Source of the DNA: a virus
DNA: 57,983 nt
IMG/VR virus record: IMGVR_UViG_3300045988_075135
Strand: one strand, 5' to 3'
The stretch's first letter is position 1; every line of letters starts with the position of its first letter. The position numbers and the translations under genes are program-made. Under the pieces are notes generated by a model. It was given only the letters and a program-made list of their open reading frames with translations. It did not search any database and was not told the DNA's origin. Positions 8,113 to 32,757 of the stretch are shown in pieces.

Positions 8113-8124
8113 AGGAGAGGCGGC

Positions 8125-10978: not shown

Positions 10979-10997
10979 TAACCGGAGGTGATACGGC

Positions 10998-19217: not shown

Positions 19218-19364
19218 ATGGCAAAGACATATGACCACGCGGTAAAGTTCGGGGGTAAAATCTATCCCCCGAACACTCCCATTGTGGAGAAGAAAGCCGC
19301 ACCTGCGCAAGCGCAGGAAAAACCGCGCAAGCCTACGAAGGGACGCGGAAAGGGTGAGGCGTAA
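19218..19364 (+). CDS. Small basic ORF (48 aa)
   Basis: ATG 19218. The stop overlaps the next ATG (TAATG). Sequence MAKTYDHAVKFGGKIYPPNTPIVEKKAAPAQAQEKPRKPTKGRGKGEA. Confidence 0.4.
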   Translation: MAKTYDHAVKFGGKIYPPNTPIVEKKAAPAQAQEKPRKPTKGRGKGEA

Positions 19365-19717
19365 TGACTGCGGCTGAACTGATTTCAGCGGGCATACCCA
19401 TTGCGGAGGGTGACGCCATAGCCGCGCTGAGGGCTGAGGCTGCGCTTGACTGGCTGGCCGAATACACCACGCTGCAATTCGACAAGGCGCATCCGGAGAC
19501 CATTGCCGCGCTGCCAGCCTGCGCGAAAATATTCATCCTGAAATACAGCGAGGTTATGAAGCGCAAGAGCGGGCTGGTAAGCCAAAGCATTGAGGGCATG
19601 AGCATGTCGTTTGGCAGCGACAGCTCATTTGCAGGTAACATATGGCAGTTGGCAAACGGGCTGCTGGGCGGTTACATCTCGCAGGTGCGCGTATTTCCTG
19701 CGCGGAAAAAGTGGTGA
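19364..19717 (+). CDS. Head-tail connector/adaptor protein (gp6-like)
   Basis: 117 aa immediately after the capsid gene. Resembles Phage_connect_1-type adaptors (AEAALDWLAEYT...). Confidence 0.7.
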   Translation: MTAAELISAGIPIAEGDAIAALRAEAALDWLAEYTTLQFDKAHPETIAALPACAKIFILKYSEVMKRKSGLVSQSIEGMSMSFGSDSSFAGNIWQLANGLLGGYISQVRVFPARKKW

Positions 19718-19729
19718 AAAAAAGAAGGG

Positions 19730-19918
19730 CTATTCGCCCTCCTTGTCTCGTTCTATGGCTTCGTTGATGGCACGGTTAATGAATCCGTTCACGCTCTCGC
19801 CTTTCGCTTCTGCGTGTGCCTGAATCAAATCTTTCCGGCCTTTCGGCACGGTCAGGTTTATTCGGTCGTATGTTCTAGCGATGTACTTGTTTTGCCATTC
19901 TGCCTTGCGATTTGCCAA
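19730..19918 (-). CDS. Ribbon-helix-helix (Arc/CopG-type) repressor, paralog 1
   Basis: TTG start with an AAGGAGGG SD. YDRINLTVPKGRKDLIQAHAEAKGESVNGFINRAINEAI reads as a beta-strand plus two helices. Confidence 0.8.
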   Translation of the reverse strand: MANRKAEWQNKYIARTYDRINLTVPKGRKDLIQAHAEAKGESVNGFINRAINEAIERDKEGE

Positions 19919-19959
19919 TGGATTCCCTCCTTCCTTGTATTATTATAGCACCGTTCGCC

Positions 19960-20040
19960 ACGTTGCACAACGTATAGAAAGCAACAAAATACGTTGCGCA
20001 ACGTCGTGCAATCCGTCAATAGAAATACGTTGCGCAACGT
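19960..20040. promoter_or_regulatory. Divergent control region with three copies of the dyad ACGTTGCGCAACGT
   Basis: O1 at 19960-19973 (ACGTTGCACAACGT), O2 at 19991-20004, O3 at 20027-20040. TATAAT at 20043-20048 (+) and its reverse complement at 19942-19947 (-). Confidence 0.6.
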
Positions 20041-20080
20041 GCTATAATATAGCCATCAACTACCGCAAGGAGGCATGGCT

Positions 20081-20212
20081 ATGAAGGAAGTTAGAATGGA
20101 ACTGGTACGGTATATCGACAAGATGGACGAGTGTACGCTTCGGCTGATGCTGGGATTTGTAAAGACGCTTTGCGCAGACGATAAAGCGGAGGTCAAAGAT
20201 GAGGCTTGTTGA
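20081..20212 (+). CDS. Leader-like 43-aa ORF, family member 1
   Basis: AAGGAGG SD. MKEVRMELVRYIDKMDECTLRLMLGFVKTLCADDKAEVKDEAC. Overlaps the next ATG by 14 nt. Conserved in 4 copies. Confidence 0.5.
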   Translation: MKEVRMELVRYIDKMDECTLRLMLGFVKTLCADDKAEVKDEAC

Positions 20213-20810
20213 TTTGACCGGGCAAAGGTTCGGGCGGCTGACCGTTATCGAAAGAGCGCCTAACGTAGGACGCAAGACAATGTGGAAGTGCAAATGCGAT
20301 TGCGGCAATTACACTGTTGTTGGGCAAACCGATTTGCATTCTCAAAGAACAAAGTCATGCGGGTGCATGTTTAAGGAGCAACTGGCTGAACGCAATACAA
20401 AGCATGGCCTTAGCAATACTAGGCTGTGCAGTATTTGGCGGGCGATGAAAGGCCGGTGCGACAATCCTAATAATCGAGCGTATAAGAACTATGGTGGTCG
20501 CGGGATTAAGGTATGCGCTGAGTGGGAAAATGATTTGCAGGCATTTTATTCCTGGGCTATCAGCAACGGCTATACGGATGAGCTTTCCATAGACCGTATA
20601 GATGTAAATGGCAACTACTGCCCAGAAAATTGCCGATGGGCAAGCAAGAATGTGCAGGCGAACAACACAAGAGCCAATCGCTATTTGGAATACAACGGCA
20701 AGCGTCAAACAATAGCACAGTGGGGCGCGGAAACCGGTGTACGGCCGGCGACGATTCGTAGGCGCTTGGAATTAGGATGGACAATCGAAAATGCCTTAAA
20801 GACACCTTAA
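20199..20810 (+). CDS. HNH-like (His-less) putative homing endonuclease / DNA-binding protein, paralog 1
   Basis: LTGQRFGRLTV, cysteine cluster WKCKCDCG...SCGC, YGGRGIKVCAEW, and SIDRIDVNGNYCPENCRWASKNVQANN (compare HNH_3 VDHKDGDRQNN..NLRW). HTH-like C-terminus. Confidence 0.7.
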   Translation: MRLVDLTGQRFGRLTVIERAPNVGRKTMWKCKCDCGNYTVVGQTDLHSQRTKSCGCMFKEQLAERNTKHGLSNTRLCSIWRAMKGRCDNPNNRAYKNYGGRGIKVCAEWENDLQAFYSWAISNGYTDELSIDRIDVNGNYCPENCRWASKNVQANNTRANRYLEYNGKRQTIAQWGAETGVRPATIRRRLELGWTIENALKTP

Positions 20811-20824
20811 TCGGTGTCTTTTTT
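20799..20824 (+). terminator. Intrinsic terminator with the gene's stop codon in the loop
   Basis: aagacacc-ttaatc-ggtgtctt followed by tttt. TAA at 20808-20810 lies in the loop. Confidence 0.7.
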
Positions 20825-20848
20825 AATTGAAAGGTGGTGATGCGACAT

Positions 20849-21357
20849 ATGAGTGTAAAGTATACCACAAAAAAAGATGGCTTCCCCAAGATGCAGAAAC
20901 AGCTTGGAGTGCTGAGCGGAGAAGGTATCGAAGTAGGCGTACTAAAAGGCGAATCGGCATGGTTCGCCTCGATACACGAATATGGTTAGGCTGTGACATT
21001 CCCGTCACCAAGAAAATGCGCAAGTATCTGGCGGCGCGCGGGCTGTACCTGAGCAAGAATACCACGCACATCCACATTCCGGAGCGCTCCTTCCTGCGAA
21101 CCGGCTATGACCAGAATATCGACGACGTTAAGAAAAAGGCGGCGCTGCTGGTAGGCGAAGTCGCCAAAGGGCATATGACGGCGCGCGGGTGTATGCAGGC
21201 CGTGGGTATGGATTTGGCGAGCAAGATAAAGGATTATGCGCGCGATCTGGACAGCCCGCCGAACCATCCGTTTACGGTCGAGCAGAAAGGCTCAAGCAAT
21301 CCGCTGGTTGATACCGGCGATATGATAGGCGGCATTAGCTGGAGGGAAGCGAAATGA
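20849..21357 (+). CDS. HK97 gp10-family tail-completion protein, interrupted by an in-frame TAG at 20987 and continuing in the -1 frame
   Basis: Frame A is MSVKYTTKKDGFPKMQKQLGVLSGEGIEVGVLKGESAWFASIHEYG*. The -1 frame continues (L)GCDIPVTKKMRKYLAARGLYLSKNTTHIHIPERSFLRTGYD.... Together they look like one gp10-like protein. Confidence 0.6.
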
Positions 21358-21719
21358 GCAGACAATATTTCGATTTTGACAGCCTGATTGAAGATTTCGC
21401 CAATCCGTTCACCGTGATAACCCACACAGACGGCGCTTATGACAGTAGCGGCGACTGGCGAGAGGGCACCGAAACGCGCACGGAATACACCGGCGCGATT
21501 ATCGCCTTCAAGGAAAGCAAGGTATTCCGCTCCGAGGGCGCAATCACGGCCAAGGACAGGCGGCTGTTCATGCGTAAGAAGCTCCCTGACGCGCTTATTG
21601 GTGCCAAAGTGGAGTACGGCGGACAAACGTACATGATTGAAAGCGAGCTGGAGAACGCCGAGTTTACCGGTGTGTACAGCTACATGCTAAGGTGGGTGAG
21701 CGCGTTTGATACCGTATAG
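21354..21719 (+). CDS. Neck / head-tail joining protein (family not assigned)
   Basis: 121 aa, coupled to the upstream gene (ATGA), within the neck module. Confidence 0.55.
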   Translation: MSRQYFDFDSLIEDFANPFTVITHTDGAYDSSGDWREGTETRTEYTGAIIAFKESKVFRSEGAITAKDRRLFMRKKLPDALIGAKVEYGGQTYMIESELENAEFTGVYSYMLRWVSAFDTV

Positions 21720-22188
21720 CAAGATGCGCGCGGCCATTGCCGGGGGGCTTAAAGACTACCTCGGCGTGCCTGTCATTCGCGGCAATCAGACCGCGCCGCG
21801 CCCGCCCTACCCTTTCGTGGCGTACAACGTGACGACCATCGCCGGGCAAAATGGCGGCTCGTGGCAGGAGCATGAGGACGCGGACCGCAAGCTGGTGCGC
21901 AGCATATGGAGCATAACGGCTCTGTCCAAGGACTGGGACGAGAGCGTCAATCTGGCAGTCAAGGCGCGGCAGTGGTTTGAACATACTGGCCGCGCGGCGC
22001 TGTCCGATCAGGGCTTTACCGTACAGTCAACGACCGACATAACCAACCGTGACAACATACTGACCGTCGAATATGAGCGCATGAACGGCTTCGACGTGTT
22101 CTTCTACGTCTACGATGAAGCGGAGCGCATATCCGACATAAACGGCCATATCGAAACGGCTGATATAACAAGGGAAGAAACGAATTGA
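21706..22188 (+). CDS. Putative tail terminator / neck protein
   Basis: 160 aa directly upstream of the sheath-like gene. TTG 21706 or ATG 21724. Confidence 0.55.
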   Translation: MIPYSKMRAAIAGGLKDYLGVPVIRGNQTAPRPPYPFVAYNVTTIAGQNGGSWQEHEDADRKLVRSIWSITALSKDWDESVNLAVKARQWFEHTGRAALSDQGFTVQSTTDITNRDNILTVEYERMNGFDVFFYVYDEAERISDINGHIETADITREETN

Positions 22189-22207
22189 CCCAAAGGAGGA
22201 ATTGACT

Positions 22208-23215
22208 ATGGCTTTTGACGTAAAAGTCAACATTGACCTGTCCAAACCCGTGGGCTCGGTGGGCTTTGGCATACCGCTGATACTCGTCGAAAATGCCTCT
22301 GCTGCTGTCGCCTACACCGAGGTATCGAGCATGGCGGAGGTCATAACCGCGGGCTTTGCCGCCACGACCGACACATACAAGGCGGTACAGCTCATGTTTG
22401 CGCAGCAGCACGCGCCGAAGTCGGTTGCGGTCTGCGCCGTAACCGGGGACGCGCCTACTGCCCTAGCGGACGACATACTTATCGCCAAAGAGTGGAGGCA
22501 GCTCATCGTGCTTAACGATGGCGACACTGCCAGCACTGTGACGGCAATCAGCACGGCGGTTGAGGCGCTGGACGGCAAGCTGTACTTCGCGGGCCTTGAG
22601 ACCGACGACAGCACCAGCATTACCGTGTCCGGCCTGCGCCGCACGATACTGTTCTACTGCGATAAGACAGACAGCGTGCCGGTGCCCGTGGCCGCGTTTG
22701 TGGGCGAATCCTGCGGTCGCGAGGCGGGCAGCTTTACTTACAAGAACATGACCCTTACCGGTGTGGCTGCGCAGGCGCTCACCGACGCCCAGATCAACGC
22801 CATACATGCCAAGGGCGGCATTACGTTCATCGCCAAAGCTGGCGACAACGTTACTTCCGAAGGCAAGGTTGCCGGGGGCGAGTACATCGACATCATCGAC
22901 AGCGAGGACTACATCGTCCAGCAGCTCGCGTACAAGACGCAGAAGCTGCTTAACGGGGCGGCCAAAGTGCCTTACGACAACAACGGCATTGCCATGTTGG
23001 AAAGCGTGGCCGTTGACGTGCTACAGGGCGCGTACAACAACGGCATGATTGATACCAACGAGGACGGTACACCCGCCTATACCGTGGCTTACGCACTGCG
23101 TGCGGACACTACGGCAGACGACCGCTCCAACCGCAAGTATCTGGGCGGCAAGTTCAGCTTCGCGCTGGCCTGCGCCATACATCAGGTGGAGATTACCGGC
23201 AGCATTAACGTTTAA
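22208..23215 (+). CDS. Putative tail sheath protein (DUF3383-like)
   Basis: ATG follows AAGGAGGA. 335 aa, lying between the neck genes and the tube/chaperone/tape-measure genes. Family assignment is from memory. Confidence 0.55.
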   Translation: MAFDVKVNIDLSKPVGSVGFGIPLILVENASAAVAYTEVSSMAEVITAGFAATTDTYKAVQLMFAQQHAPKSVAVCAVTGDAPTALADDILIAKEWRQLIVLNDGDTASTVTAISTAVEALDGKLYFAGLETDDSTSITVSGLRRTILFYCDKTDSVPVPVAAFVGESCGREAGSFTYKNMTLTGVAAQALTDAQINAIHAKGGITFIAKAGDNVTSEGKVAGGEYIDIIDSEDYIVQQLAYKTQKLLNGAAKVPYDNNGIAMLESVAVDVLQGAYNNGMIDTNEDGTPAYTVAYALRADTTADDRSNRKYLGGKFSFALACAIHQVEITGSINV

Positions 23216-23229
23216 GGGAGGGAAAACGC

Positions 23230-23628
23230 ATGAGTGTTTATACCTATGACGCCAAAGACACCTCGGTCGTCGTGGACGGCACCTACATTACCGGTCTGGG
23301 CGAGGACATGATTTCCGTCGAGAAGGAGGAGGATTTCTTCACTCCTTCCGTCGGCGCGCAGGGCGACATTGTAAAGTCGCAGATCAACAACAGCCTCGGC
23401 ACCATGACCATTACCATTCAGCCTACCAGCCCGCAAAAGAAGTACCTGCTTAGCCTTGCCAAGCGCACTGAGCCGTTCCCGCTGTGGGCGGTAAACAAGA
23501 AGCTGGGCGAGCGCATAGGCGGTACTATGGCCAACCTCAAAACCATGCCCGAGTTCTCCCGCGGCGCGGAGGCCGAGGACATGGAGCTGGAGTTCCAGAT
23601 TTTCGACCTGACTATTGACGCGGGCTAA
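23230..23628 (+). CDS. Putative tail tube protein (DUF3277-like)
   Basis: 132 aa following the sheath-like gene and followed by a terminator and the chaperone gene. Confidence 0.55.
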   Translation: MSVYTYDAKDTSVVVDGTYITGLGEDMISVEKEEDFFTPSVGAQGDIVKSQINNSLGTMTITIQPTSPQKKYLLSLAKRTEPFPLWAVNKKLGERIGGTMANLKTMPEFSRGAEAEDMELEFQIFDLTIDAG

Positions 23629-23652
23629 AAGGGGTCGATTCAGACAGGCTTA

Positions 23653-23680
23653 GGGAGCGGGATCCGCTCCCCTTTTCTTT
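23653..23680 (+). terminator. Intrinsic terminator/attenuator after the tube gene
   Basis: gggagcgg-gat-ccgctccc followed by cttttcttt. Confidence 0.5.
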
Positions 23681-23704
23681 ATCAAAAATTAGGAGGATAA
23701 GAAG

Positions 23705-24016
23705 ATGGCAAACAAATTCTACACGGTCAAAAAGACGATAAACGGCAAGGAATACACGGCGCAGTTCTCCGGCATTTCGACGGCGCTTAAGGCGGTTGAC
23801 GCCAGCTACATTGACGGAACCAGCAATACCAGCGTTGAGCTGCTGAGCAAGTATCTTTTCGACAACATCATCGTTGAGCCGAAGGGCCTGACTGCCGACG
23901 ACTTCGACAGCATGGACGAGTTCAACGAGGTCGTTTCCTTCGCCCGCAAGGTCATGCAGGGCGAATTTCGAGAAGCATCTGAGCAGGGCGCAACTGAAAC
24001 AAAGGGCAAAAAGTAA
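23705..24016 (+). CDS. Tail assembly chaperone (G-like, XkdN-like)
   Basis: 103 aa directly upstream of the tape measure gene. Ends ...GGC AAA AAG TAA. Confidence 0.7.
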   Translation: MANKFYTVKKTINGKEYTAQFSGISTALKAVDASYIDGTSNTSVELLSKYLFDNIIVEPKGLTADDFDSMDEFNEVVSFARKVMQGEFREASEQGATETKGKK

Positions 24017-24173
24017 CTGGGCGCTCTGGCGCCTCGTATTGTCTGACCGCGGATTTGACTATAAGACAGTGTTCGGGCGGCCTATGATGACGCCGCAGGA
24101 CGTGGCTGAGGCAAACTACGCGCTGGACATGCAGATCGAGGCGGAAAAACGCGCGGCCAAGAAGAAACGCTGA
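24009..24173 (+). CDS. Frameshift extension of the tail assembly chaperone (T-like part)
   Basis: The +1 (equivalently -2) frame reads ...KSNWALWRLVLSDRGFDYKTVFGRPMMTPQDVAEANYALDMQIEAEKRAAKKKR*. It has no start codon of its own. The A-run GGCAAAAAG lies at the junction. Confidence 0.5.
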   Translation, partial: KSNWALWRLVLSDRGFDYKTVFGRPMMTPQDVAEANYALDMQIEAEKRAAKKKR

Positions 24174-24220
24174 CGCCATGCCAGCGCTTCTTTTTTTGTC
24201 CGCGGAAAGGAGGCGCTTAA

Positions 24221-25135
24221 ATGGCTACAATTCGTGAGGATGTCGTCAAAATCGGGTTTGACATCGATATGGGCGACCTGAACAAGCTGACCGACGAGCT
24301 TGACGGCCTCAAGAAATCGGTAAGCGGCGGCATAGGCGACGACGCCCTTGACGAGCTGGTCAAGGACACGAAAAAAGCGGCGGACGGGCTGGACGACGTG
24401 AAGGACAGCGTCAAGGGCATAAAGCCGGACGGCATTGACGATACCACCGACGGCCTCAAGGAAACCAGTACCGAGGCGCAGAAGGCGCACGGCAAGCTCA
24501 AAAAGCTAGGTGAAACCAGCATGAACAAGGCCGTGTCCGGTGTTAAAAAGCTGGCCAGCGGGCTGGGCAAGGTTGCCATAGCAGCGGGCAAGGCCGTGGC
24601 AAAGGCTATGGCACTGGCGGCCACGGGCGTTGGCGCAATGGTTACTATGGCCGTAAAGAGCTATGCGGACTATGAGCAGTTGACCGGCGGCGTGGACACA
24701 TTGTTCGGCGGCAGTCAAAGCATAGAGGACTACACCAAATCCATAAGCAAATCGACCAGCGCCATTAAGGAGTTCCAGAAGGCAAACGGGCTTGCCGTCG
24801 ATGGAATTATCGGCCCGAAAACGCGGGCGGCCATCGAGGAAAGTTACAGCAAAATCGGCTCGGCATCGGAAATAGTGCAGAAAAACGCGGCGCAGGCTTA
24901 CAAGACTGCGGGACTATCTGCCAATGACTACATGGAGACCGTTACGTCGTTTTCCGCGAGCCTGATAAGCAGTCTCGGCGGCGACACGGTAAAGGCCGCG
25001 AATTACGCGGACATGGCTATAACGGATATGTCCGACAACGCAAACAAGATGGGCACGGACATGGGTTCCATTCAGGATGCCTATCAGGGGTTTGCAAAGC
25101 AAAACTATACGATGCTCGACAACTTGAAGCTCGGT
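24221..25135 (+). CDS. Tape measure protein, exon 1 (305 codons)
   Basis: The ORF loses TMP-like sequence right after ...QGFAKQNYTMLDNLKLG. The P1 pairing defines the 5' splice site after T25135. Confidence 0.85.
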
Positions 25136-26051
25136 AGACTGTGCCATTGCCGAGCGGCATAAACCTCGTGAAAACGGTGAAACCCCAAACGGATAGTACC
25201 GTGGGCAATACCGTGCGAAGCGTGAAATTGCACTTGACAATCCGGTATTTGCGCAGTAAAATAAAAATAGCAAATACGTGGAGGGCGTCGAGATGATTTG
25301 GAAAAAGATTAAGCAGAATGAGAATTATTCTATCAATGAGCTTGGCGAAGTTCGCAACGATTTGACCGGAGCACTGAAAAAGGCGTACACCAACGCGGCG
25401 AACGGCTATAATTACGTTGATTTGTGGGCAGGTAACAAGTCAACGAAGTGTGCCATTCACAGACTGCTGGCGGAAGCGTTTATTCCTAATCCGGATGGCA
25501 AGCCTACCGTCGATCATAAAGACGGCGATAGGCAAAACAATTCGTTGCAGAACTTGCGCTGGGCAACATATGCAGAGCAGAACAGCCGGTTTAATTCAAC
25601 CGGTGTAAGGAGCCAGAAAGTAAAAGTCACCCACTACGCGGAGAAACGGAAAAAGCGTGGCGGAGGGCATGAAGCATGGCTTGATGCTGACGGCATTATG
25701 TATTTTGATAGGATAACGGATGCTGCTGATTACTTTGGCCTGACAATCGGTTCCATCTCTCTCCTACTCAAGGACGGAAACATCGGGAGACGAGGCAAGA
25801 CCAGAGGGTACAGGTTTGAGTATCTTGACGGTAGCAGAGTGCAATTTCATGAACGTGTAACGACTACCGAAACGGCGGAGGAATCCGAAACGGAGTAGGG
25901 TACACCCAAGCGGGTGGAAGTGCGAGGCCCTGCGCAAGCAGGTGAAGAGATAGTCTGAACTGCATGGAAACATGTAGCTGGGCAAAGGAGCACCCTTCGG
26001 GGTGCTTTTTTATGCCCGGATGCAGCCTAGCGAACTGCATTGAACATTATG
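25136..26051 (+). mobile_element. Group I intron (916 nt) carrying an HNH homing endonuclease ORF
   Basis: The 5' exon ends in U and the intron ends in G. P1: exon gctcggt (25129-35) pairs with intron gccgagc (25149-55), including the U.G pair. P10: gccat (25143-47) pairs with exon 2 atggc (26053-57). S-like element aagagatagtc at 25945-55. Confidence 0.8.
25293..25898 (+). CDS. Intron-encoded HNH homing endonuclease (NUMOD4 + HNH_3 type, I-HmuI-like)
   Basis: NENYSINELGEVRN, AIHRLLAEAFIPNPDGKPTVDHKDGDRQNNSLQNLRWATYAEQN. Confidence 0.9.
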   Translation: MIWKKIKQNENYSINELGEVRNDLTGALKKAYTNAANGYNYVDLWAGNKSTKCAIHRLLAEAFIPNPDGKPTVDHKDGDRQNNSLQNLRWATYAEQNSRFNSTGVRSQKVKVTHYAEKRKKRGGGHEAWLDADGIMYFDRITDAADYFGLTIGSISLLLKDGNIGRRGKTRGYRFEYLDGSRVQFHERVTTTETAEESETE

Positions 26052-29000
26052 TATGGCGGCACGCAGGAAGAAATGAAACGCCTGCTAAAGGACGCTGGCA
26101 AGCTGGCGGGCAAGAAGTTTGACATTAAGAACTACTCCGACATAATCGAGGCCATTCACGTCATTCAGGACGAAATGGGCATTACCGGCACGACCGCTGA
26201 GGAAGCTGATAAGACCATTTCCGGTTCGTTCAATTCGATGAAGGCGGCGTGGAGCAACACGCTCGTCAGCCTTGTGGTCGGCGGTGATTCTTTCGACGAC
26301 TGCATTGACAACCTCGTGGATTCCGCGAAAACCTTTGCAAAAAACGTCATGCCCGCTATCGTCAAGGCGCTGGAGGGCATGGGCGATCTGATAGAGGCGC
26401 TGGCTCCGATTCTCGAAAAAGAGCTGCCCGGCATTATTGATTCGCTGCTTCCCCCGCTGATTAAGGCGGCGACGGCGCTTGTAAAGGGCCTTATTAAGGC
26501 ATTGCCCAGCATCATATCCGCGATAGTGGACGAGATACCGTTTATCCTGCGCGAGCTGTGGGACGGCATCAAGGACGCATTCGGCGAGATACCGGGCATG
26601 AAGAAGGTCGAAACCTTTTTCGGCAAGCTGAATAAGGTATTCACGAAAAACGCGGATAAGCTCAAGAAGATAATCCCCGTGGTTATCGGCCTTATTGGCG
26701 CATTCAAGCTGCTCAAGAAGCTGAAAGGTCTGGGCAGTCTGCTGGGCGGTGTGCTCGGCAAGGGCACCGGCGGCAGCAGCGGCGGGCTGCTCGGCACGTT
26801 TACCAAGCTCGGCAAAACGAAAATGAGCGTCATACTCAAGGGTATGGCGAACCTTGCCATAATACTGGGCGGCCTTACGATACTGGCGGCGGCGCTGATG
26901 TATGTCGCGCCATATATGGCTAGGCTAACGGACGTCAAGTCGCTGGTTAAGGTGCTGGCGGTTATCACCGCGCTGGGGCTGATAGGCTCCGGGCTGGCGA
27001 AATTGGCCGGCATCGTGGGCAAGATACCCGTTGCGACGGTAGCAAAGGGCCTTGCCAACATTGCAATCATCATGGTGGGGCTTGGAGCGCTGACGGCGGT
27101 GCTCATGTGGGTGGCGCCGTATATCGCGGAGCTGTCCGACCTGCGAACCGTGGCAAAGCTGCTGATCGTGATTGCGGCCGTGGGCGTCGTAGGCTCGGCG
27201 CTGGCGGGGCTGGCGGGGCTTGTAGGTGCGATACCGATTACGCTGGTGCTGGAGGGACTTGCCAACATCGCGCTGGCGCTGGGCGGCGTGACGGCCATTA
27301 TAGCCGCGTTCGGCGCGCTCTCGATGATAGACGGCTTTAACGAGTTCATTTCGTCGGGCGGTGAAACGCTCAAGACCATATTCAACATCATAGGCCAGTG
27401 CGCAGGTGCGGTCATAGGCGGCTTTGGCGAGGGCGTATCCGAATCCTTGCCCGCCATAGGCGAGAATCTGGCGGCCTTCGGCACGGCTATTCAGCCGCTA
27501 TTCACCTCATTCTCCGGCATTGATCTGACCGGGTTTAACGACTTTCTGGGTGCCTTCTCCCGGTTCGTGCTGGTCATGACGGGTGAAAAGGTATTGAGCT
27601 TTATTACCGGCGGCGTCAACTATGCCGATCTGGGCACACAGCTTACCGCCTTTGCCGACAATGCAGCGGGGTTCTTTACCACTGTGGCGGCAATACCCGA
27701 GGCGGCGTTCACCAATATCACGCTGCTGTTCAACGCACTGGCGGGCGTAAATGCGCTGCCTAAGGAAGGCGGATTGCTAAGTTGGTTTACCGGGGAATCG
27801 ACCACAGGTATGGCCAACATAGCGGCCAACCTGCCGACACTGGCAACCAGCATATCCTCGTTCATGACCAACCTGGGCGACATAACCGACTTTACGCCGC
27901 TGTCATCCTTGTTCACCGTGCTGAGCGGCGTGAGCGCATTGCCCCAAGAGGGCGGGCTATTTAGCTGGTTCACGGGCGAATCGACAACCGGCATGGCGAA
28001 TATCGCGGCCAATTTGCCGATGCTGGCAACGAGCGTCGCCACCTTCTTTGCAAACCTCGGGGGCATTGCGGACTTTACGCCTATCTCTAGCCTGTTTAAT
28101 ACGCTGGGCAGTGTGAGCGCGTTGCCAAAAGAAGGCGGGCTTATGTCGTGGTTTGCGGGCGATTCCACCGAGGGCCTTGCAAACGTGGCCGCACAGCTTC
28201 CGGGGCTTGCTACAAGCGTGGGCGCGTTCTTTGCCAATCTGGGCGGTGTAACCGACTTTACGCCTATATCGTCGCTGTTCACGGCGCTGGGCGGCATAAC
28301 GGCAATGCCTAAAGAGGGCGGCATAAGCTCGTGGTTCGGCGGCGATTCTTCGACCGGCCTTTCCAACGTGGCAAGCCAGCTCCCCGGTGTAGCGTCCAGC
28401 ATTTCGACGTTCTTTGCCAACTTGGGCGGCATAACGGATTTCACGCCAATTGCAGACCTGTTTAATACACTCAGCTCGATAAAGGTTGATTCGACCGCAG
28501 CGGATAAACAGGGATGGCTCGCGTGGGCCGGAGCGGGCACCAGCCAACTTGAGGACCTTGGCACTGCACTTTCTGCCTTCGCAACCAATGCGGCAACGTT
28601 CTTCGATACGGTGAACGGCCTGAACACCGAAAACCTTGACAGCTTCTTTACGACCGTGGGCAAGGCGGGCGATCTGCCGGACGCGCTGTCGGGCATTGAC
28701 AGCGAGCTGGGCACGCAGATGTCCAATATGGTTACGACCATCGAGACCGGCTTTACCAACGTTAAGACGGCGCTTACATCGGCTGTCAGCAGCATGGTGC
28801 AGACCTGCAACGACAAGTACAACGCCTTCCAGACGGCAGGTGCATATATGATGTCGGGCCTCAAGGCAGGCATGGAGAGCAAGCTGTCCTCGCTGGTAAC
28901 TACTGCACAGGCAATGGCGAGCAAGATACAAAAGGCGTTTGACGTCAAGATGCAAATCAACTCGCCGTCGAAGGTCATGTTTGAGAAAGGCTCCTATGTT

Positions 29001-29294
29001 GGACAGGGCCTTGTAAAGGGCATGGAAAGCACTACACCGTCCATACAGATGGCGGCCAAGCACATGGGCAGCGCGTCGATGCCGTTTGACACGTATAGCC
29101 CGGATGCGGGCAACGTGTACAACAGTTCGAGCAGCAGCGAGCAAACCAGCGTTGCGCCCGTGTTCAACCTGACGATAAGCGGCAGCACCGACGACCGCTC
29201 GCTCGCCCGAAGGGTTAAGCAGTGGGTAAGCGAATCGATAAACGAAACGTTTGAAAGCATGGAGCGGCGAAACCGCCTCGTGCGTGAAACGTAA
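26052..29294 (+). CDS. Tape measure protein, exon 2 (1080 aa)
   Basis: Begins YGGTQEEMKRLLKDAGKLAGKKFDIKNYSDIIEAIHVIQDEMGITGTTAEEA, in frame with exon 1. Long TM-rich and repeat regions follow. Confidence 0.9.
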   Translation, partial: YGGTQEEMKRLLKDAGKLAGKKFDIKNYSDIIEAIHVIQDEMGITGTTAEEADKTISGSFNSMKAAWSNTLVSLVVGGDSFDDCIDNLVDSAKTFAKNVMPAIVKALEGMGDLIEALAPILEKELPGIIDSLLPPLIKAATALVKGLIKALPSIISAIVDEIPFILRELWDGIKDAFGEIPGMKKVETFFGKLNKVFTKNADKLKKIIPVVIGLIGAFKLLKKLKGLGSLLGGVLGKGTGGSSGGLLGTFTKLGKTKMSVILKGMANLAIILGGLTILAAALMYVAPYMARLTDVKSLVKVLAVITALGLIGSGLAKLAGIVGKIPVATVAKGLANIAIIMVGLGALTAVLMWVAPYIAELSDLRTVAKLLIVIAAVGVVGSALAGLAGLVGAIPITLVLEGLANIALALGGVTAIIAAFGALSMIDGFNEFISSGGETLKTIFNIIGQCAGAVIGGFGEGVSESLPAIGENLAAFGTAIQPLFTSFSGIDLTGFNDFLGAFSRFVLVMTGEKVLSFITGGVNYADLGTQLTAFADNAAGFFTTVAAIPEAAFTNITLLFNALAGVNALPKEGGLLSWFTGESTTGMANIAANLPTLATSISSFMTNLGDITDFTPLSSLFTVLSGVSALPQEGGLFSWFTGESTTGMANIAANLPMLATSVATFFANLGGIADFTPISSLFNTLGSVSALPKEGGLMSWFAGDSTEGLANVAAQLPGLATSVGAFFANLGGVTDFTPISSLFTALGGITAMPKEGGISSWFGGDSSTGLSNVASQLPGVASSISTFFANLGGITDFTPIADLFNTLSSIKVDSTAADKQGWLAWAGAGTSQLEDLGTALSAFATNAATFFDTVNGLNTENLDSFFTTVGKAGDLPDALSGIDSELGTQMSNMVTTIETGFTNVKTALTSAVSSMVQTCNDKYNAFQTAGAYMMSGLKAGMESKLSSLVTTAQAMASKIQKAFDVKMQINSPSKVMFEKGSYVGQGLVKGMESTTPSIQMAAKHMGSASMPFDTYSPDAGNVYNSSSSSEQTSVAPVFNLTISGSTDDRSLARRVKQWVSESINETFESMERRNRLVRET
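27753..28484 (+). repeat. Four tandem 183-bp (61-aa) repeats inside the tape measure gene
   Basis: Units start at 27753, 27936, 28119 and 28302: A(L/M)P(K/Q)EGG..SWF.G(E/D)S..G..N.A..LP...(T/S)S...F..NLG...DFTP...LF..L. Confidence 0.9.
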
Positions 29295-29304
29295 AAAGGG
29301 AGGG

Positions 29305-29499
29305 CTATTCGCCCTCCTTGTCGCGTTCTATGGCTTCGGTGATGGCTCTGTTGATGAATCCATTCACGCTCTCGCCTTTCGCTTCTGCGTGTGCCTGAAT
29401 CAAATCTTTCTTTCCCTTAGGCATTGTAAGATTGATTCTGTCGTAATTTGCGGCCATGTATTTGTTGACCGCCTTTTGCTGGGCTTTACTTGTTGCCAT
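29305..29499 (-). CDS. Ribbon-helix-helix repressor, paralog 2
   Basis: ATG 29499 follows AAAGGAGGTG. MATSKAQQKAVNKYMAANYDRINLTMPKGKKDLIQAHAEAKGESVNGFINRAITEAIERDKEGE. The track's 210-aa ORF is an upstream over-extension. Confidence 0.8.
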   Translation of the reverse strand: MATSKAQQKAVNKYMAANYDRINLTMPKGKKDLIQAHAEAKGESVNGFINRAITEAIERDKEGE

Positions 29500-29535
29500 C
29501 AAAGCACCTCCTTTATGCAATATTATAGCGCATTT

Positions 29536-29620
29536 ATATATCTGTGCATATAGACGTATTACACATATTTGCGCAGATATATTCTGTGAATCCGTCAATA
29601 GATATATTTGCGCAGATATA
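29536..29620. promoter_or_regulatory. Divergent control region with three copies of the near-dyad ATATTTGCGCAGATATA
   Basis: 29565-29581 and 29604-29620 are identical. An inverted degenerate copy (atatatctgtgcatata) lies at 29536-29552. TACAAT at 29622-29627. Confidence 0.6.
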
Positions 29621-29659
29621 CTACAATATAGCCACGAACCAATGGAAAGGGGTACGGCT

Positions 29660-29791
29660 ATGAAGGAAGTTAAAACGGAACTGGTACGGTATATCGACAA
29701 GATGGACGAGTGTACGCTTCGGCTGATGCTGGGATTTATAAAGGCGCTTTGCGCAGACGATAAAGCGGAGGTCAAAGATGAGGCTTGTTGA
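29660..29791 (+). CDS. Leader-like 43-aa ORF, family member 2
   Basis: MKEVKTELVRYIDKMDECTLRLMLGFIKALCADDKAEVKDEAC. Overlaps the next ATG by 14 nt. Confidence 0.5.
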   Translation: MKEVKTELVRYIDKMDECTLRLMLGFIKALCADDKAEVKDEAC

Positions 29792-30395
29792 TTTGACCGG
29801 GCAAAGGTTCGGAAGGCTGACGGTGCTTCGCCGGTATGAGAAAAACAACGGTCAGGGGAAACCGCTATGGCTTTGCAAATGCGATTGCGGGCACGAAACG
29901 GTTGCCGCTGGATATTCGCTGAAAAGTGGGAATACAACGTCCTGCGGCTGTTACAAAACCGAACATCCGAACCGTACTAAACATTCTGGCTGTGGAACAA
30001 GGCTATACCGAATTTACAAGAACATCAAGCAGCGTTGTTACAACACAAAATCGCCAATTTACAAGTATTACGGCGCGCGTGGCATCGTGATGTGTGATGA
30101 ATGGGAGAACAGTTTCGAGGCTTTCCGTGATTGGGCGTATTCAAACGGTTACAGGGATACTGATAAACGTTCCGAATACACTATTGACCGCATCGACGTG
30201 AACGGGAATTATTGCCCCGACAACTGCCGATGGGCGTCTCAGAAAGTCCAAACGCGCAATACGCAGCGCACAAGATATGCAACATGCGACGGAGTTACTA
30301 AATCAATCGGTGAATGGGCTGAAGAATGGGGTGTACCGTACAACACAGTATATTTCAAAGCACGGCGGAACAATTGGACTTTAAGCGCACCGTAA
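29778..30395 (+). CDS. HNH-like (His-less) putative homing endonuclease / DNA-binding protein, paralog 2
   Basis: MRLVDLTGQRFGRLTV, WLCKCDCGHE...SCGC, YGARGIVMCDEW, TIDRIDVNGNYCPDNCRWASQKVQTRN. Confidence 0.7.
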   Translation: MRLVDLTGQRFGRLTVLRRYEKNNGQGKPLWLCKCDCGHETVAAGYSLKSGNTTSCGCYKTEHPNRTKHSGCGTRLYRIYKNIKQRCYNTKSPIYKYYGARGIVMCDEWENSFEAFRDWAYSNGYRDTDKRSEYTIDRIDVNGNYCPDNCRWASQKVQTRNTQRTRYATCDGVTKSIGEWAEEWGVPYNTVYFKARRNNWTLSAP

Positions 30396-30408
30396 CGGTG
30401 CGCTTTTT
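30384..30408 (+). terminator. Intrinsic terminator with the stop codon in the loop
   Basis: agcgcaccg-taa-cggtgcgct followed by tttt. TAA at 30393-30395 forms the loop. Confidence 0.7.
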
Positions 30409-30410
30409 AC

Positions 30411-31280
30411 GTGGAGGTGGGTCAAATCGCATTAATCAATAATATGTATATCCATGTTACGGATGAATCAGCTTCGCGGGAGGTGGACGCCACCTCCCAC
30501 CCCGTTGAAAGCGGCATACCCATTACAGATACGGTCAAGCCTAAAGCCCTCACAATCTCGCTGTCGGGCAAAATAGTGGACTACGGCGGCACCAAGGCGC
30601 AGCAGGTCATTGACAAGATAAAAAGCTGGCAGGACAGCGGCTCGCTTATAACGTACCGGGGGCGGAACAATGCCAGCAATATGCAGGTTCGCAGCTTCAA
30701 CACCGACCATCCGAACACCAACAGCGGCGGCGCGGACTTCTCGCTGGAGCTGGAGCAGGTGCGCATCGCCAAGAGTGCATACGCGCCGAAAAAGGCCTCC
30801 AGTGGCAGCACGTTCAGCGCGGCAAGCATAAAGGTAGGCTCGAAGGTTATCTTCAAGGGCGGACCGGTATACGTTGCGTCCGACGCTAAAAAGGCGGCGG
30901 CCACGCGCGGCCGGAGCACCTGCAAGGTAACTATCATCAATACCCGGAGCTGGGGCGTGCATGACTACCACCTCATATCAACCGACGGCGGCAGGGTGTA
31001 CGGCTGGGTTGATTTCAAAAACATCGAGGGCTGCGCGCAGACCGGCACAAGCGGCACGACCAACGCGGGCACGCAGCAAGTGAGCAGCGGTTCCGGCTCG
31101 GCGGTGTATCACACCGTCAAGAAGGGTGATACAGTCTGGGCGCTTGTGAACAAAAAATACAAATACCTGGGCAAATCCGAAAGCTGGGTTATCAATAATA
31201 ACCCGAAAGCCTTCTCGCGCAAGGGAGACGCGCGAACGCTCCAGATAGGCAGAAAGCTGCTTATGGGCTATAAAAAGTAA
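30411..31280 (+). CDS. Tail protein with SH3-like and C-terminal LysM domains (XkdP-like)
   Basis: LysM: VYHTVKKGDTVWALVNKKYKYLGKSESWVINNNPKAFSRKGDARTLQIGRKLLM. The GTG start abuts the cassette terminator. No clear SD; the first in-frame ATG is at 30444. Confidence 0.7.
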   Translation: MEVGQIALINNMYIHVTDESASREVDATSHPVESGIPITDTVKPKALTISLSGKIVDYGGTKAQQVIDKIKSWQDSGSLITYRGRNNASNMQVRSFNTDHPNTNSGGADFSLELEQVRIAKSAYAPKKASSGSTFSAASIKVGSKVIFKGGPVYVASDAKKAAATRGRSTCKVTIINTRSWGVHDYHLISTDGGRVYGWVDFKNIEGCAQTGTSGTTNAGTQQVSSGSGSAVYHTVKKGDTVWALVNKKYKYLGKSESWVINNNPKAFSRKGDARTLQIGRKLLMGYKK

Positions 31281-31291
31281 GGAGGCAGCAA

Positions 31292-31615
31292 ATGGAGACA
31301 CCTGACACGCTTGAAATAAATAAAGAGCTGCTCCCCTACACCTGCGACATGCTGCTGGCCGGGGAGCTGTTCACGCTGAAAGTAAATTACAACGCGACCG
31401 CCGACCTGTTCACGCTGGACCTGTACAAGGACGGCGCGCTGATCTGCGCCGGGGAACCTGTCATTTATGGTGTAAGGCTCTGGCAAGACGTTTACAACCC
31501 GGAGCTGTTCCCCGCCGTGGACATCATCCCGACAGACCCTTCCGGCGAAAGCGATACGGTAACGTTTGACAATCTGGGCAAAACCGTACTGCTGATTATC
31601 GATAATGGCGAATAA
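31292..31615 (+). CDS. Hypothetical tail-module protein
   Basis: 107-aa track ORF with AAGGAGG upstream. No family recognised. Confidence 0.55.
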   Translation: METPDTLEINKELLPYTCDMLLAGELFTLKVNYNATADLFTLDLYKDGALICAGEPVIYGVRLWQDVYNPELFPAVDIIPTDPSGESDTVTFDNLGKTVLLIIDNGE

Positions 31616-31625
31616 AAAGGAAGGG

Positions 31626-31814
31626 CTATTCGCCCTCCTTGTCGCGTTCTATGGCTTCGTTGATGGCACGCTTGATGAAGCCGCCAATGGTTTCACCTCT
31701 TGCGGCGGCATGTTCTTTGATGACTTCTTTCTGCCCTTTGGGAACTTGCAGACGGATGTCGTCATAGGCTTTCTTCGCATAGGCGTTGTTGATTTCCGAG
31801 CGGGTCTTTGCCAC
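31626..31814 (-). CDS. Ribbon-helix-helix repressor, paralog 3 (divergent beta-strand)
   Basis: GTG 31814 lies 5 nt after AAGGAGGTG. (M)AKTRSEINNAYAKKAYDDIRLQVPKGQKEVIKEHAAARGETIGGFIKRAINEAIERDKEGE. Confidence 0.75.
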   Translation of the reverse strand: MAKTRSEINNAYAKKAYDDIRLQVPKGQKEVIKEHAAARGETIGGFIKRAINEAIERDKEGE

Positions 31815-31860
31815 GGAATCACCTCCTTCATGCAATATTATAGCCGGTTCTCATGTAAAT

Positions 31861-31936
31861 GTACATGTACCAAGTAACCAACAATGTACATGTATCTTTG
31901 GCGGGTCCGTCAATAGATAAGTATATGTACATGTAC
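31861..31936. promoter_or_regulatory. Divergent control region with three copies of ATGTACATGTAC (palindrome GTACATGTAC)
   Basis: Copies at 31861-31870, 31886-31895 (GTACATGTAT) and 31927-31936. TATAAT at 31937-31942 directly abuts the third copy. Confidence 0.6.
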
Positions 31937-31974
31937 TATAATATAGCCATCAACTACCGCAAGGAGGCATGGCT

Positions 31975-32106
31975 ATGAAGGAAGTTAAAACGGAACTGGT
32001 ACGGTATATCGACAAGATGGACGAGTGTACGCTTCGGCTGATGCTGGGATTTGTAAAGACGCTCTGCGCAGACGATAAAGCGGAGGTCAAAGATGAGGCG
32101 TGTTGA
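31975..32106 (+). CDS. Leader-like 43-aa ORF, family member 3
   Basis: MKEVKTELVRYIDKMDECTLRLMLGFVKTLCADDKAEVKDEAC. Overlaps the next ATG by 14 nt. Confidence 0.5.
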   Translation: MKEVKTELVRYIDKMDECTLRLMLGFVKTLCADDKAEVKDEAC

Positions 32107-32722
32107 TTTGACCGGGCAGAGGTTCGGGCGGCTGACCGTTATCGAAAGAGCCGAAAGTCAAACTCGGAGCGACGGCTCAAAAATATCGCGCTGGCTGTGC
32201 AAATGCGATTGTGGAAATACCAAGATTGTACGACAGAGCAACCTCGTAAGCGGGCACATTAAGTCGTGTGGATGTCTTAGGATTGAAAAAACGATTGCCC
32301 GTAATCAGATCCATTGCGAATCCTACTCCCGCGTTTATACGATTTGGGAAAACATTAAACAGCGTTGCTTTGATTCCAAGTGCAAAAACTACGCTCGGTA
32401 TGGCGGCAGGGGCATAACGCTTTGCGATGAGTGGCGGTATAGTTTTGAGGCATTCCGCGACTGGGCAATGAAGAACGGGTACAACGACACAATGTCAATC
32501 GACCGCATAGACAATAACGGCAATTACGAACCAATAAATTGTCGCTGGGTATCGAATAAGGTTCAGGCGAACAATCGGCGGAGCAACCGCATGATAACAT
32601 ACTGTGGCAAAACACAAACGCTATCACAATGGGCCGATGAACTAGGCATTGACTACAAGCGATTATGGGCAAGATTATACAAATGCAACTGGCCGATAGA
32701 AAAGGCATTTAAGGCACCCTGA
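32093..32722 (+). CDS. HNH-like (His-less) putative homing endonuclease / DNA-binding protein, paralog 3
   Basis: MRRVDLTGQRFGRLTV, WLCKCDCGNT...SCGC, YGGRGITLCDEW, SIDRIDNNGNYEPINCRWVSNKVQANN. Confidence 0.7.
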   Translation: MRRVDLTGQRFGRLTVIERAESQTRSDGSKISRWLCKCDCGNTKIVRQSNLVSGHIKSCGCLRIEKTIARNQIHCESYSRVYTIWENIKQRCFDSKCKNYARYGGRGITLCDEWRYSFEAFRDWAMKNGYNDTMSIDRIDNNGNYEPINCRWVSNKVQANNRRSNRMITYCGKTQTLSQWADELGIDYKRLWARLYKCNWPIEKAFKAP

Positions 32723-32736
32723 CGGGCGCCTTTTTT
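32711..32736 (+). terminator. Intrinsic terminator with the stop codon in the loop
   Basis: aaggcaccc-tgac-gggcgcctt followed by tttt. TGA at 32720-32722 lies in the loop. Confidence 0.65.
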
Positions 32737-32757
32737 ATTTTGAAAGGGGGTGGTTTT

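Follow-up and report, generated by a model that had tools for sequence, protein, structure and literature searches.

The viral contig IMGVR_UViG_3300045988_075135 (57,983 nucleotides, nt; the window, by which the whole analysed stretch is meant) contains three co-linear units of ~1.1 kb in its tail-gene operon, and each of them is probably a free-standing selfish element of the homing-endonuclease type that inserted itself among the late genes of a temperate, myovirus-like phage infecting gut Oscillospirales. Every unit, referred to here as a cassette, carries a ribbon-helix-helix (RHH) repressor gene, a micro-protein gene and a gene for an HNH_3-like protein, H. The anatomy of the cassettes, their polymorphism in the population, the pairing of H type with insertion site, the reassortment of the modules and the link between H and split downstream genes can be read at the sequence level. 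For one downstream gene, Neck1, this link is perfect in the sequences compared: the gene is interrupted at 12 of the 12 H-bearing loci (ten loci, the window and L115) and intact at 71 of the 71 H-less loci (49 viral loci and 22 from metagenome-assembled genomes).

A sequence-only reading of the window had described three units of identical architecture, and all their parts were found where it had placed them. In each unit a minus-strand RHH gene of 62-64 amino acids (aa) is followed by a control region of ~160 bp with three cassette-specific dyads, a plus-strand promoter, a 43-aa open reading frame (ORF) that overlaps the start of the H gene by 14 nt, the H gene itself (203-209 aa) and terminators; terminator-like hairpins of the intrinsic type flank each unit at both ends. 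The three-way DNA alignment has a mean column identity of 78%, which is unevenly distributed: the 3' half of the RHH gene, the small ORF and the first ~15 codons of H are 92-100% identical (96-100% at the nucleotide level for the micro-protein ORF block), and identity elsewhere is ~40-65%. The GC content of the cassettes is 0.467-0.478, versus 0.54-0.58 in the flanks. The same reading had put each unit exactly between two structural genes, which holds for the left edge and fails at the right one, where the first 12-64 codons of the downstream gene are replaced. It had also treated the units as plain intergenic inserts and overlooked that two of the three cassettes travel with a short insertion, beginning with TAG, that splits the essential gene downstream. 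The repressors, operators and H proteins of cassettes 1-3 are numbered accordingly (R1-R3, O1-O3, H1-H3), and the parts lie in the window as follows.

19718..20828, plus strand: cassette 1 (R1, micro-protein and H1), directly 3' of the TGA stop of the head-tail adaptor gene (19364-19717); GC 0.478 versus 0.55-0.58 in the flanks
19722-19744, minus strand: terminator of R1, overlapping the R1 stop codon
19730..19918, minus strand: R1, RHH repressor of 62 aa with a TTG start; Pfam Arc 22.6 bits (cutoff 20.4), phrog_13890 E 5e-25
19960..20048, no strand: control region 1, with three O1 dyads (19960, 19991 and 20027) and the plus-strand promoter
20020-20048, plus strand: promoter TAGAAA-17-TATAAT of cassette 1, whose spacer contains the third O1 dyad
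20049..20082, plus strand: hairpin ATAGCCAT-N18-ATGGCTAT of cassette 1, starting right after the -10 box and spanning the Shine-Dalgarno sequence (within N18) and start codon of the micro-protein
20081..20212, plus strand: micro-protein ORF of 43 aa in cassette 1, with the 14-nt overlap with the H1 start
20199..20810, plus strand: H1, HNH_3-like protein of 203 aa with a zinc (Zn) ribbon, a beta-beta-alpha core with D132-R133 and a helix-turn-helix (HTH)-like tail
20798-20824, plus strand: terminator of H1
20829..20991, plus strand: diverged tract linked to cassette 1, with a new ribosome-binding site and the substituted N-terminal part of Neck1/tail-completion (ORF 20849-20989)
20984..20991, plus strand: TAG micro-insertion in Neck1, GGT-TAG-GC (5 nt, TTAGG, within a Gly codon); the C-terminal part of the gene runs to 21357
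29295..30410, plus strand: cassette 2, directly 3' of the TAA stop of the tape-measure gene; GC 0.467
29305-29499, minus strand: R2
29538, 29565 and 29604: O2 dyads
29599-29627: promoter of cassette 2
29628-29661: hairpin equivalent to that of cassette 1
29660-29791, plus strand: micro-protein copy of cassette 2
29778-30395: H2
30385-30408: terminator of cassette 2
30411..30452, plus strand: diverged first ~12 codons of the Dit-like 289-aa gene, travelling with cassette 2; the gene is intact
31616..32740, plus strand: cassette 3, between a 107-aa gene and the baseplate-hub gene
31626-31814, minus strand: R3, with a GTG start
31859, 31884 and 31925: O3 dyads
31914-31942: promoter of cassette 3
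31943-31976: hairpin equivalent to that of cassette 1
31975-32106, plus strand: micro-protein copy of cassette 3
32093-32722: H3
32713-32736: terminator of cassette 3
32741..32957, plus strand: diverged tract of cassette 3, with replacement of the N-terminal 64 codons of the baseplate-hub gene (32758-32952)
32950-32957, plus strand: 8-nt TAG micro-insertion TAGGGTCT, which ends the diverged tract of cassette 3; the rest of the hub gene (32958-33668) is in the -1 frame

Relatives of the window were found via capsid and Dit-like anchors; all comparators are metagenome assemblies, and three IMG/VR contigs (048148, 052893 and 086537) are 96-99% identical to the window outside the cassettes. The sequence-only reading had proposed a search for empty sites in related genomes, and these near-identical phages provide an empty allele for each of the three insertions. 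Site 1 lacks a cassette in 048148 and 052893 (loci L013 and L014), the capsid protein of which is 100% identical to that of the window, and sites 2 and 3 are empty in all three close contigs (L010-L012). Occupancy assorts independently among relatives: the window is occupied at sites 1, 2 and 3, 086537 at sites 0 and 1, and 048148 and 052893 at none. Cassette 2, absent from L010-L012, is present in L334-L336 and is the only cassette in two of these assemblies (L334 and L335); cassette 3 is absent from L010-L012 and from L334, where site 3 is empty, and present in contigs from five further samples. Site 0 holds a fourth cassette in 086537 (L173), with an RHH ~70% identical to R2, an identical micro-protein and an H 50% identical to H3, and is empty in the window at ~4598-4637, between the ORFs 3216-4466 and 4588-6078. 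The relatives' host range points to gut Oscillospiraceae, Ruminococcaceae and Acutalibacteraceae.

The flanks of the insertions are asymmetric. The left flanks are 99-100% identical to the empty alleles up to the insert, and the right flanks begin with diverged tracts of ~170, 45 and 250 bp (sites 1, 2 and 3, respectively) with 57-87% identity, beyond which identity returns to 97-100% (63-87% versus 97-100% for the site-1 tract and the sequence past its end). These tracts, which account for the 12-64 replaced codons, are common to other occupied alleles, such as that of L115 at site 1. At sites 0 and 2 there are short diverged tracts only, and the downstream ORFs are intact (in 086537 the first ~18 codons of the gene next to the site-0 cassette are diverged). 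On insertion of cassette 3 the upstream 107-aa gene lost its last four codons, and two genes that overlap in empty alleles were moved apart.

The H lineage follows the site even where the regulators have been swapped, and site 1 is represented by at least six lineages. H proteins of the H1 clade (64-99% identical to H1) occupy site 1 in the window, 086537, L115 and L001-L009; in L056 the site holds a more distant H (48% identical to H1). The phages of L001-L009 have capsid DNA ~80% identical to that of the window, and their site-1 H stands without an adjoining RHH gene or small ORF. H2 occupies site 2 in four genomes (the window and L334-L336). The best relatives of H2 and H3 in an IMG/VR search were ~50% identical, so for these two the tracking of sites by H applies within this phage lineage only; a metagenome scan with the H1-clade alignment returned distant family members only, at most 56% identical, and a megablast search of 17.5 kb against GenBank phages gave no match. 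Considering the empty alleles, the site-tracking of H and the co-conversion-like tracts, the homing interpretation offered by the sequence-only reading stands in these respects, and the absence of the canonical catalytic histidine (His) throughout the family, discussed below, speaks against it. On balance we favour the interpretation that the cassettes are individually mobile, recently inserted units of the homing-endonuclease type.

More intriguing is the state of the genes that follow cassettes 1 and 3. The ORFs of 51 aa and 113 aa located 3' of cassette 1 align one after the other along the profile of the Neck1/tail-completion family. The sequence at this place is ...CAC GAG TAT GGC TGC GAC... 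in empty alleles, versus ...CAC GAA TAT GGT TAG GCT GTG AC... in the window, where the 5-nt insertion produces an in-frame TAG and a frameshift. The GGTTAGGC insertion is also present in 086537 and in the distant phages L001 and L005, in which H stands bare. L008 has a different insertion of 7 nt (TAT TAG C TAC GGT), and L056 one of 4 nt (TGG TAG G before CTT) located six codons upstream. All three independent insert types (GG[TTAGG]C, TAT[TAGCTAC]GGT and TGG[TAGG]CTT) fall within the stretch AWLASIHEYGC, which is the most conserved 24-27 nt of Neck1: among 58 unique intact alleles the top four of 86 windows cover it. The baseplate-hub gene, which matches phrog_196, forms one uninterrupted ORF of 300 aa in empty alleles (L012 and L334), and in the window it is interrupted by the 8-nt insertion (TTC-TAGGGTCT-GAC) precisely where the diverged tract ends. 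The resulting split into 64 aa and 195 aa recurs in L336, L337 and L339, three further samples that reach that far.

All four insert types open with an in-frame TAG, which is the rarest stop codon of the late genes (2 of 23). Perfectly matched candidate take-off and landing codons are found in two insert types (GGT/GGC at +5 and TAT/TAC at +7), the insert at site 3 offers a perfect -1 re-pairing site, U-UUC-UAG (TTC to TTT), and the L056 insert has a partial codon match (TGG/AGG at +4). A conceptual +5 hop at Neck1 yields a protein of 163 aa that is colinear with the intact homolog, with the junction peptide EYGCDIPVTK; a conceptual -1 slip at the hub gene yields a protein of 303 aa with an LGS insertion, likewise colinear with its intact homolog, with the junction peptide VPFLGSDDDVEPNEAEIK. 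The matched codons suggest ribosome hopping or -1 frameshifting at the inserts. Reading of TAG by a phage suppressor tRNA was rejected, as the sole tRNA is tRNA-Thr(TGT) and a change of frame would be required anyway; this tRNA gene (anticodon TGT, not a suppressor) lies at 16563-16636 and immediately precedes the genes for scaffold and capsid. A hairpin downstream of the site-1 insert, considered as a possible stimulator, was dropped as well, since sequence inspection found that it is not kept in L001 or L005.

H1-H3 are 51-54% identical to each other in pairwise comparisons and belong to a very large family, with more than 8,000 homologs at E<1e-5. The best PHROG match of H1 is phrog_374 'HNH endonuclease' (E 9e-80), HNH-annotated PHROG families extend down to E 1e-80, and relatives in BFVD are annotated as HNH endonuclease, PVL ORF-50-like, AP2 or HTH homing endonuclease. 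When 31 diverse members are aligned, a modular build emerges, with between one and four Zn-ribbon repeats at the N-terminus (LTGxRFGRLTV...CxCxCG...SCGC), a conserved core and one to three C-terminal HTH-like repeats, in agreement with the HTH-looking C-terminus of the sequence-only reading. Members such as P0008, P0053 and P0036 differ by tandem duplication of the Zn-ribbon (one to four) and HTH-like (one to three) modules. The module number, as judged from these sequences, suggests a means of tuning target-site specificity. The family profile matches I-HmuI (1u3e) in PDB with E=0.0035, where LTIDRID..GNYEP.NCRW....Q.NN of H aligns to VVDHKDG....NLRW....N.EN of I-HmuI (the D-H...N...N motif); this agrees with the proposed HNH_3-like core with arginine (Arg) in place of the catalytic His. 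An hhalign comparison of the H profile with the window's own HNH_3 protein gave E=0.07; phmmer of H1 against PDB sequences returned nothing, and the NCBIfam search nothing meaningful. Asp132, Asn144 and Asn156, the metal-site positions, are invariant among the 31 homologs. Since the core aligns with I-HmuI and carries Arg for His, H probably derives from the HNH_3 lineage and at the same time fails one of its defining features. H is thus best described, with the same reservation as the homing explanation of which it is part, as a probable HNH_3/I-HmuI-derived modular DNA-binding protein.

The RHH genes match phrog_13890 with E 4e-16 to 5e-25, as expected from their description in the sequence-only reading; R1 (22.6 bits) and R2 (22.0 bits) lie above the Pfam Arc cutoff of 20.4, and R3 lies below the Pfam cutoffs with a phrog_13890 match of E 4e-16. 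Each control region contains three copies of its own dyad, ACGTTGCGCAACGT (O1), ATATTTGCGCAGATAT (O2) or ATGTACATGTA (O3). The claim that these dyads are cassette-specific survives at up to two mismatches, where each is confined to its own control region save for one stray O1-like site at 56765. The plus-strand promoters are sigma-70-like, and the third dyad lies within the -35/-10 spacer of the H promoter. The residues of the RHH beta-strand co-vary with the operator cores: R1, R2 and a fourth paralog, R4, have DRINLT and the cores T/CTGCGCAA (TGCGCA core), and R3 has DDIRLQ and the core ATGTACAT. A switch with private operators is real at the level of sequence.

The regulatory module is also separable from H. 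The site-1 cassette of 086537 combines an RHH 100% identical to R3 and R3-type operators with an H 99% identical to H1, and the site-2 cassette of L334 combines an R1-type RHH and R1-type operators with H2. The breakpoints of this reassortment fall in the near-identical 3' end of the RHH gene and in the block formed by the small ORF and the 5' end of H, which explains why these blocks are homogenised. An explanation of the near-identical leader block by conserved RNA structure was rejected, as the 212-nt fold has z = -0.1, and the identity of the block is better explained by recombination between cassettes. That the module is generic in this phage can be seen from R4, which has the switch architecture of the cassettes but an unrelated putative cargo (41.4-42.4 kb).

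42182-42376, plus strand: R4, fourth RHH paralog, with three TTACTTGCGCAAGTAA-type dyads at 42056, 42104 and 42121
41388-42002, minus strand: 204-aa ORF of the two-gene operon divergent from R4
40981-41388, minus strand: 135-aa ORF of the same operon (phrog_17847)

The partners are not H at most of 81 RHH-anchored viral loci, and those inspected include antirepressor-like and other unrelated proteins. Seen from the side of H, an RHH gene is nearby at only a handful of 160 diverse H loci and the small ORF at none of the 160. In L110 (IMGVR_UViG_3300045988_036514, ~3171-4180) an RHH gene is divergent from a 36-aa leader-like ORF, MSDYYKSAIVEMLKNMSDEDLAFFYTLMEKALLGVS, and the next gene encodes a canonical NUMOD4/HNH_3 endonuclease in which the catalytic His is present; the control layout of the cassettes, as far as gene order and sequence indicate, serves a different endonuclease family there.

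The 43-aa ORF had been interpreted as a leader, and this interpretation has to be abandoned. An exact-word homolog search retrieved near-identical copies only, and in a profile search its first 30 residues defined a family of free-standing proteins of 30-45 aa (43 representatives at E<=1e-3), with the consensus M.e.lK.El..YI..MDEY.LRl.LsF.k.L. A paralog in the window lies between the large serine recombinase (integrase) gene and a cI-like HTH repressor gene, and homologs adjoin cI-like genes in other contigs too (L455 and L456). By its sequence relatives the micro-protein belongs to a family that normally stands beside cI-like repressors, and its role is probably regulatory and tied to the lysis-lysogeny switch.

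45824-45946, plus strand: 40-aa micro-protein paralog, MEADRIKTEIMQYIANMDEYHLRLMLSFIQTL...
44020-45597, minus strand: serine recombinase gene
45977-46330, minus strand: cI-like HTH repressor gene

The following course of events would account for these characteristics. In genomes that lack the cassette, H would recognise the conserved 5' end of the gene downstream of its own site and nick or cut it; repair from a cassette-bearing genome would copy in the cassette and, with it, part of the downstream gene, and the donor polymorphisms in this part would make the recipient resistant to further cutting. At sites 1 and 3 the resistance determinant would be the insertion of 5 or 8 nt that starts with an in-frame TAG. 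This insertion is probably tolerated, either because the protein works in two pieces or because ribosomes bridge it, by a +5 hop (GGU to GGC) in the case of site 1 and a -1 slip (UUC to UUU) in that of site 3; Neck1 and the hub are low-copy virion proteins, and therefore a low bridging efficiency may suffice. The divergent Arc/Mnt-like RHH protein would bind the three private dyads, which overlap both promoters, and repress its own gene and the operon of micro-protein and H. Such repression would result in a transient burst of H in a cell without the cognate RHH, and in silence or low autoregulated expression in the lysogen, and orthogonal RHH specificities could let several cassettes coexist. 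By analogy with I-TevI and mobE, the 5' hairpin could form only on read-through transcripts and block their translation. Cleavage, repression, expression timing and recoding are predicted steps of this scheme.

A number of observations weigh against the homing explanation. The His that acts as general base in beta-beta-alpha-Me nucleases is an invariant Arg133 in the 31 diverse homologs; no His is invariant anywhere in that alignment, and His69, in the linker, occurs in only ~27 of the 31 sequences. The Pfam HNH_3 search gave no match to the H proteins. Structure prediction and a Foldseek search, both proposed in the sequence-only reading, gave a divided answer: AlphaFold2 predicts H1 confidently (pLDDT, the predicted local distance difference test, 91 for the full chain and 86 for the core) with a beta-beta-alpha unit at residues 130-155, and the fold is not confirmed structurally, because Foldseek against PDB, with the full chain and with the core domain, found nothing significant (best HNH entries 4h9d and 3ldy at E>2). 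These findings would be expected if H were a nuclease-dead, domesticated DNA-binding regulator or exclusion factor and the cassettes 'morons' spread by recombination and selection, and so would the abundance of DNA-binding modules (Zn-ribbon and HTH-like repeats) and the AP2 or DNA-binding annotations of BFVD relatives. On the other hand, the invariance of Asp132, Asn144 and Asn156 would be puzzling in a dead site, the cassettes insert precisely and at specific sites, with H type fixed to the site while regulators reassort, the flanking tracts are asymmetric in the manner of co-conversion, and the micro-insertions occur only in H-bearing genomes, in the most conserved stretch of the target gene. 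Precise sites, fixed H, tracts and micro-insertions are together hallmarks of endonuclease-driven homing and self-immunity, and we consider a dead H quite improbable. The homing explanation is further weakened by the intrinsic terminators at the 3' ends of the cassettes, which should be polar on essential downstream genes, and by the hairpin over the micro-protein start, which at -10 to -14 kcal/mol in all three cassettes is weakly better than shuffled sequence (z -1.3 to -2.7). The mosaic modules could in principle be assembly chimeras, but the combination of R1 with H2 is found in two independent assemblies. Moreover, the split-gene signature is not general to the H family (one candidate in 189 loci), so split downstream genes were rejected as a general trait of it.

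The matched take-off and landing codons could also stem from microhomology-mediated repair, and the match is perfect in only two of the four insert types. The TAG micro-insertions might accordingly be repair scars that inactivate Neck1 and the hub gene, in a defective prophage or with genes working in two pieces and no recoding. Insertions of 4-8 nt with flanking microhomology do resemble end-joining products, there is a conserved in-frame Met 24 nt past the site-1 stop, and genes in pieces made by homing endonucleases are known (mobE in Aeh1 nrdA, and the split Topo2L without bypass). However, GGTTAGGC is common to H1 lineages that are 64-70% identical, in phages with ~80% capsid identity, which argues that the insertion has long been maintained. 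Scars would also have to begin with TAG in all four types and to produce two perfect codon pairs and one perfect -1 re-pairing site; a two-piece Neck1 in L056 would lose the most conserved motif, LASIHEYGC, from both products; the next start codon at site 3 lies 41 codons downstream; and the cassette-3 allele is found in at least five samples. Repair scars, be it in a defective prophage or with genes in two pieces, are on balance less likely than not. The same holds for the possibility that the main selected function is competition between phages, with H destroying or 'marker-excluding' cassette-less relatives, homing as a by-product and the RHH types acting as immunity types. The cassettes have a promoter of their own, separate from that of the late operon, unlike the bare site-1 H in L001, L005 and L008 (~75-bp upstream gap), three orthogonal operator specificities exist in one genome, and the modules reassort among genomes; expressed I-HmuI-like endonucleases cause marker exclusion in Skunavirus (PMC12724721), and nuclease genes mark exchange boundaries between competing phages (PMC10448857). 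PADLOC, on the contrary, places the cassettes in no known defence system, and competition would be compatible with homing rather than exclusive of it. A toxin-antitoxin or defence system proper was rejected, given that the RHH gene is divergent from H and not co-transcribed with it, which leaves no co-operonic pair, and that PADLOC gave no meaningful matches.

The closest known system is MobA/gene 60 of phage T4 (Bonocora et al. 2011, as cited in PMC5009743; Manning & Atkins 2022). The insert of that system lies close to the nick site, protects the gene from being nicked by its own element, and is skipped by ribosomes; the take-off codon is followed by a stop, and take-off and landing codons are matched. 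As there, a free-standing gene of the HNH endonuclease type is located immediately upstream of its target gene; the insertion lies ~46-64 codons into that gene, in a highly conserved region, is present only with the element and is proposed to block self-cleavage; a stop follows the candidate take-off codon, candidate take-off and landing codons match perfectly in two of the four insert types, and endonuclease and insert form one mobile unit flanked by diverged 'homR'-like sequence. Unlike the 50-nt gap of gene 60, the inserts described here are 4-8 nt long and have no evident stem-loop, internal Shine-Dalgarno sequence or nascent-peptide signal, and the targets are Neck1 and the baseplate hub of temperate Clostridia phages instead of a topoisomerase. 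H also has Arg where the catalytic His would be, a -1 slip instead of a hop would account for one case, an RHH switch is added, and recoding is predicted. By these comparisons of sequence features the cassettes are an analogue of MobA/gene 60 and not a member. The T4 bypass cassette 'remains unique' (Manning & Atkins 2022, bioRxiv 10.1101/2022.08.31.505936). It is possible, although we would place the chance somewhat below even, that the cassettes represent a second independent natural system of the mobA/gene 60 type, in which TAG-initiated 'savior' inserts of 4-8 nt are decoded by hopping (+5, +7) or by -1 shifty-stop frameshifting and are combined with interchangeable, orthogonal RHH 'immunity' switches.

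Free-standing homing genes of phages are intergenic, vary in presence and absence among relatives and show co-conversion (PMC2988022; PMC12724721), and the lineages of the Skunavirus I-HmuI-like endonucleases cluster by insertion site (PMC12724721). The cassettes resemble the seg/mob and Skunavirus endonuclease genes in their intergenic position within conserved operons, their polymorphism, the co-conversion of flanks and the correspondence of lineage and site, and they share with T-even free-standing genes a possible hairpin that sequesters the ribosome-binding site just after the element's own promoter. Many T4 free-standing genes are promoter-less or self-regulated (as in I-TevI autorepression); the cassettes differ from them in having a separate divergent RHH gene, three operators and a micro-protein, all exchangeable. 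With I-HmuI/HNH_3 (PDB 1u3e; PF13392) H has in common the beta-beta-alpha core (GY..L.vDh.D....N...NLRW.t...N..N), the modular build with NUMOD/HTH-like DNA-binding tails and the phage-borne location, and it departs from them in the invariant Arg for His, in N-terminal Zn-ribbon repeats in place of NUMOD4 and in the missing match to the Pfam model.

Arc represses the IS605 TnpA/TnpB promoters, and Arc-family RHH genes that adjoin homing endonuclease genes have been noted in passing (bioRxiv 10.64898/2026.09.24.754181). As in that case and in the P22 immI Mnt/Arc-Pant layout, a small Arc-type RHH gene is divergent from the nuclease or cargo, with dyads that overlap the -35/-10 boxes of divergent promoters, and the role proposed for the IS605 Arc is likewise to restrain the element's own expression. 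The preprint lists the adjacency to endonuclease genes without analysing it; here a homing-type gene within the late operon of a phage is the cargo, one genome holds several orthogonal types of RHH and operator, which reassort between cassettes, and binding is predicted from the operators. The H family, free-standing homing-type genes and repression of a mobile-element nuclease by Arc (IS605) are thus already known. The novelty that the sequence-only reading saw in a dedicated RHH repressor is tempered by this adjacency and by the generic R4 module. In our literature search no description was found of exchangeable RHH/micro-protein switches on phage homing-type genes, nor of short TAG-initiated protective insertions linked to homing-type genes.

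Two further regions of the window vary among relatives. An insertion of 916 bp at 25136-26051 divides the tape-measure gene into 24221-25162 and 26040-29294; it carries a canonical NUMOD4/HNH_3 endonuclease ORF (25278-25898) and, at 25808-25977, a match to group I introns that stays below the threshold (RF00028, 25.9 bits, E 2.8e-4). Relatives 048148, 052893 and L335 lack this insertion, and 086537 and L334 have it, a pattern that points to another independently assorting mobile element. At ~6317-10984, in the region of the 626-aa (6232-8112) and 808-aa (8125-10551) ORFs, the window has ~3 kb extra compared with 086537 (L173), a further large indel that separates close relatives.

What do these cassettes mean for the phages that carry them? 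A phage protein family of more than 8,000 detected members, routinely annotated as 'HNH endonuclease', has an invariant Arg at the position of the canonical catalytic His. Empty, occupied and recombinant alleles of the cassettes are all available, and if our interpretation is true they would constitute a population-resolved case of homing-type elements that invade, and are reshuffled in, the structural operon of abundant human and animal gut phages. The strategy of an endonuclease combined with a protective insert would then extend beyond a single case, to new genes, a new endonuclease clade and very short inserts, and the split genes would be simple natural substrates for stop-codon-stimulated hopping and frameshifting. 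A homing-type gene would stand under a dedicated, exchangeable repressor module of the Arc type, with several orthogonal specificities per genome, which would bear on how selfish nucleases are silenced in lysogens and how cross-repression between cassettes is avoided.

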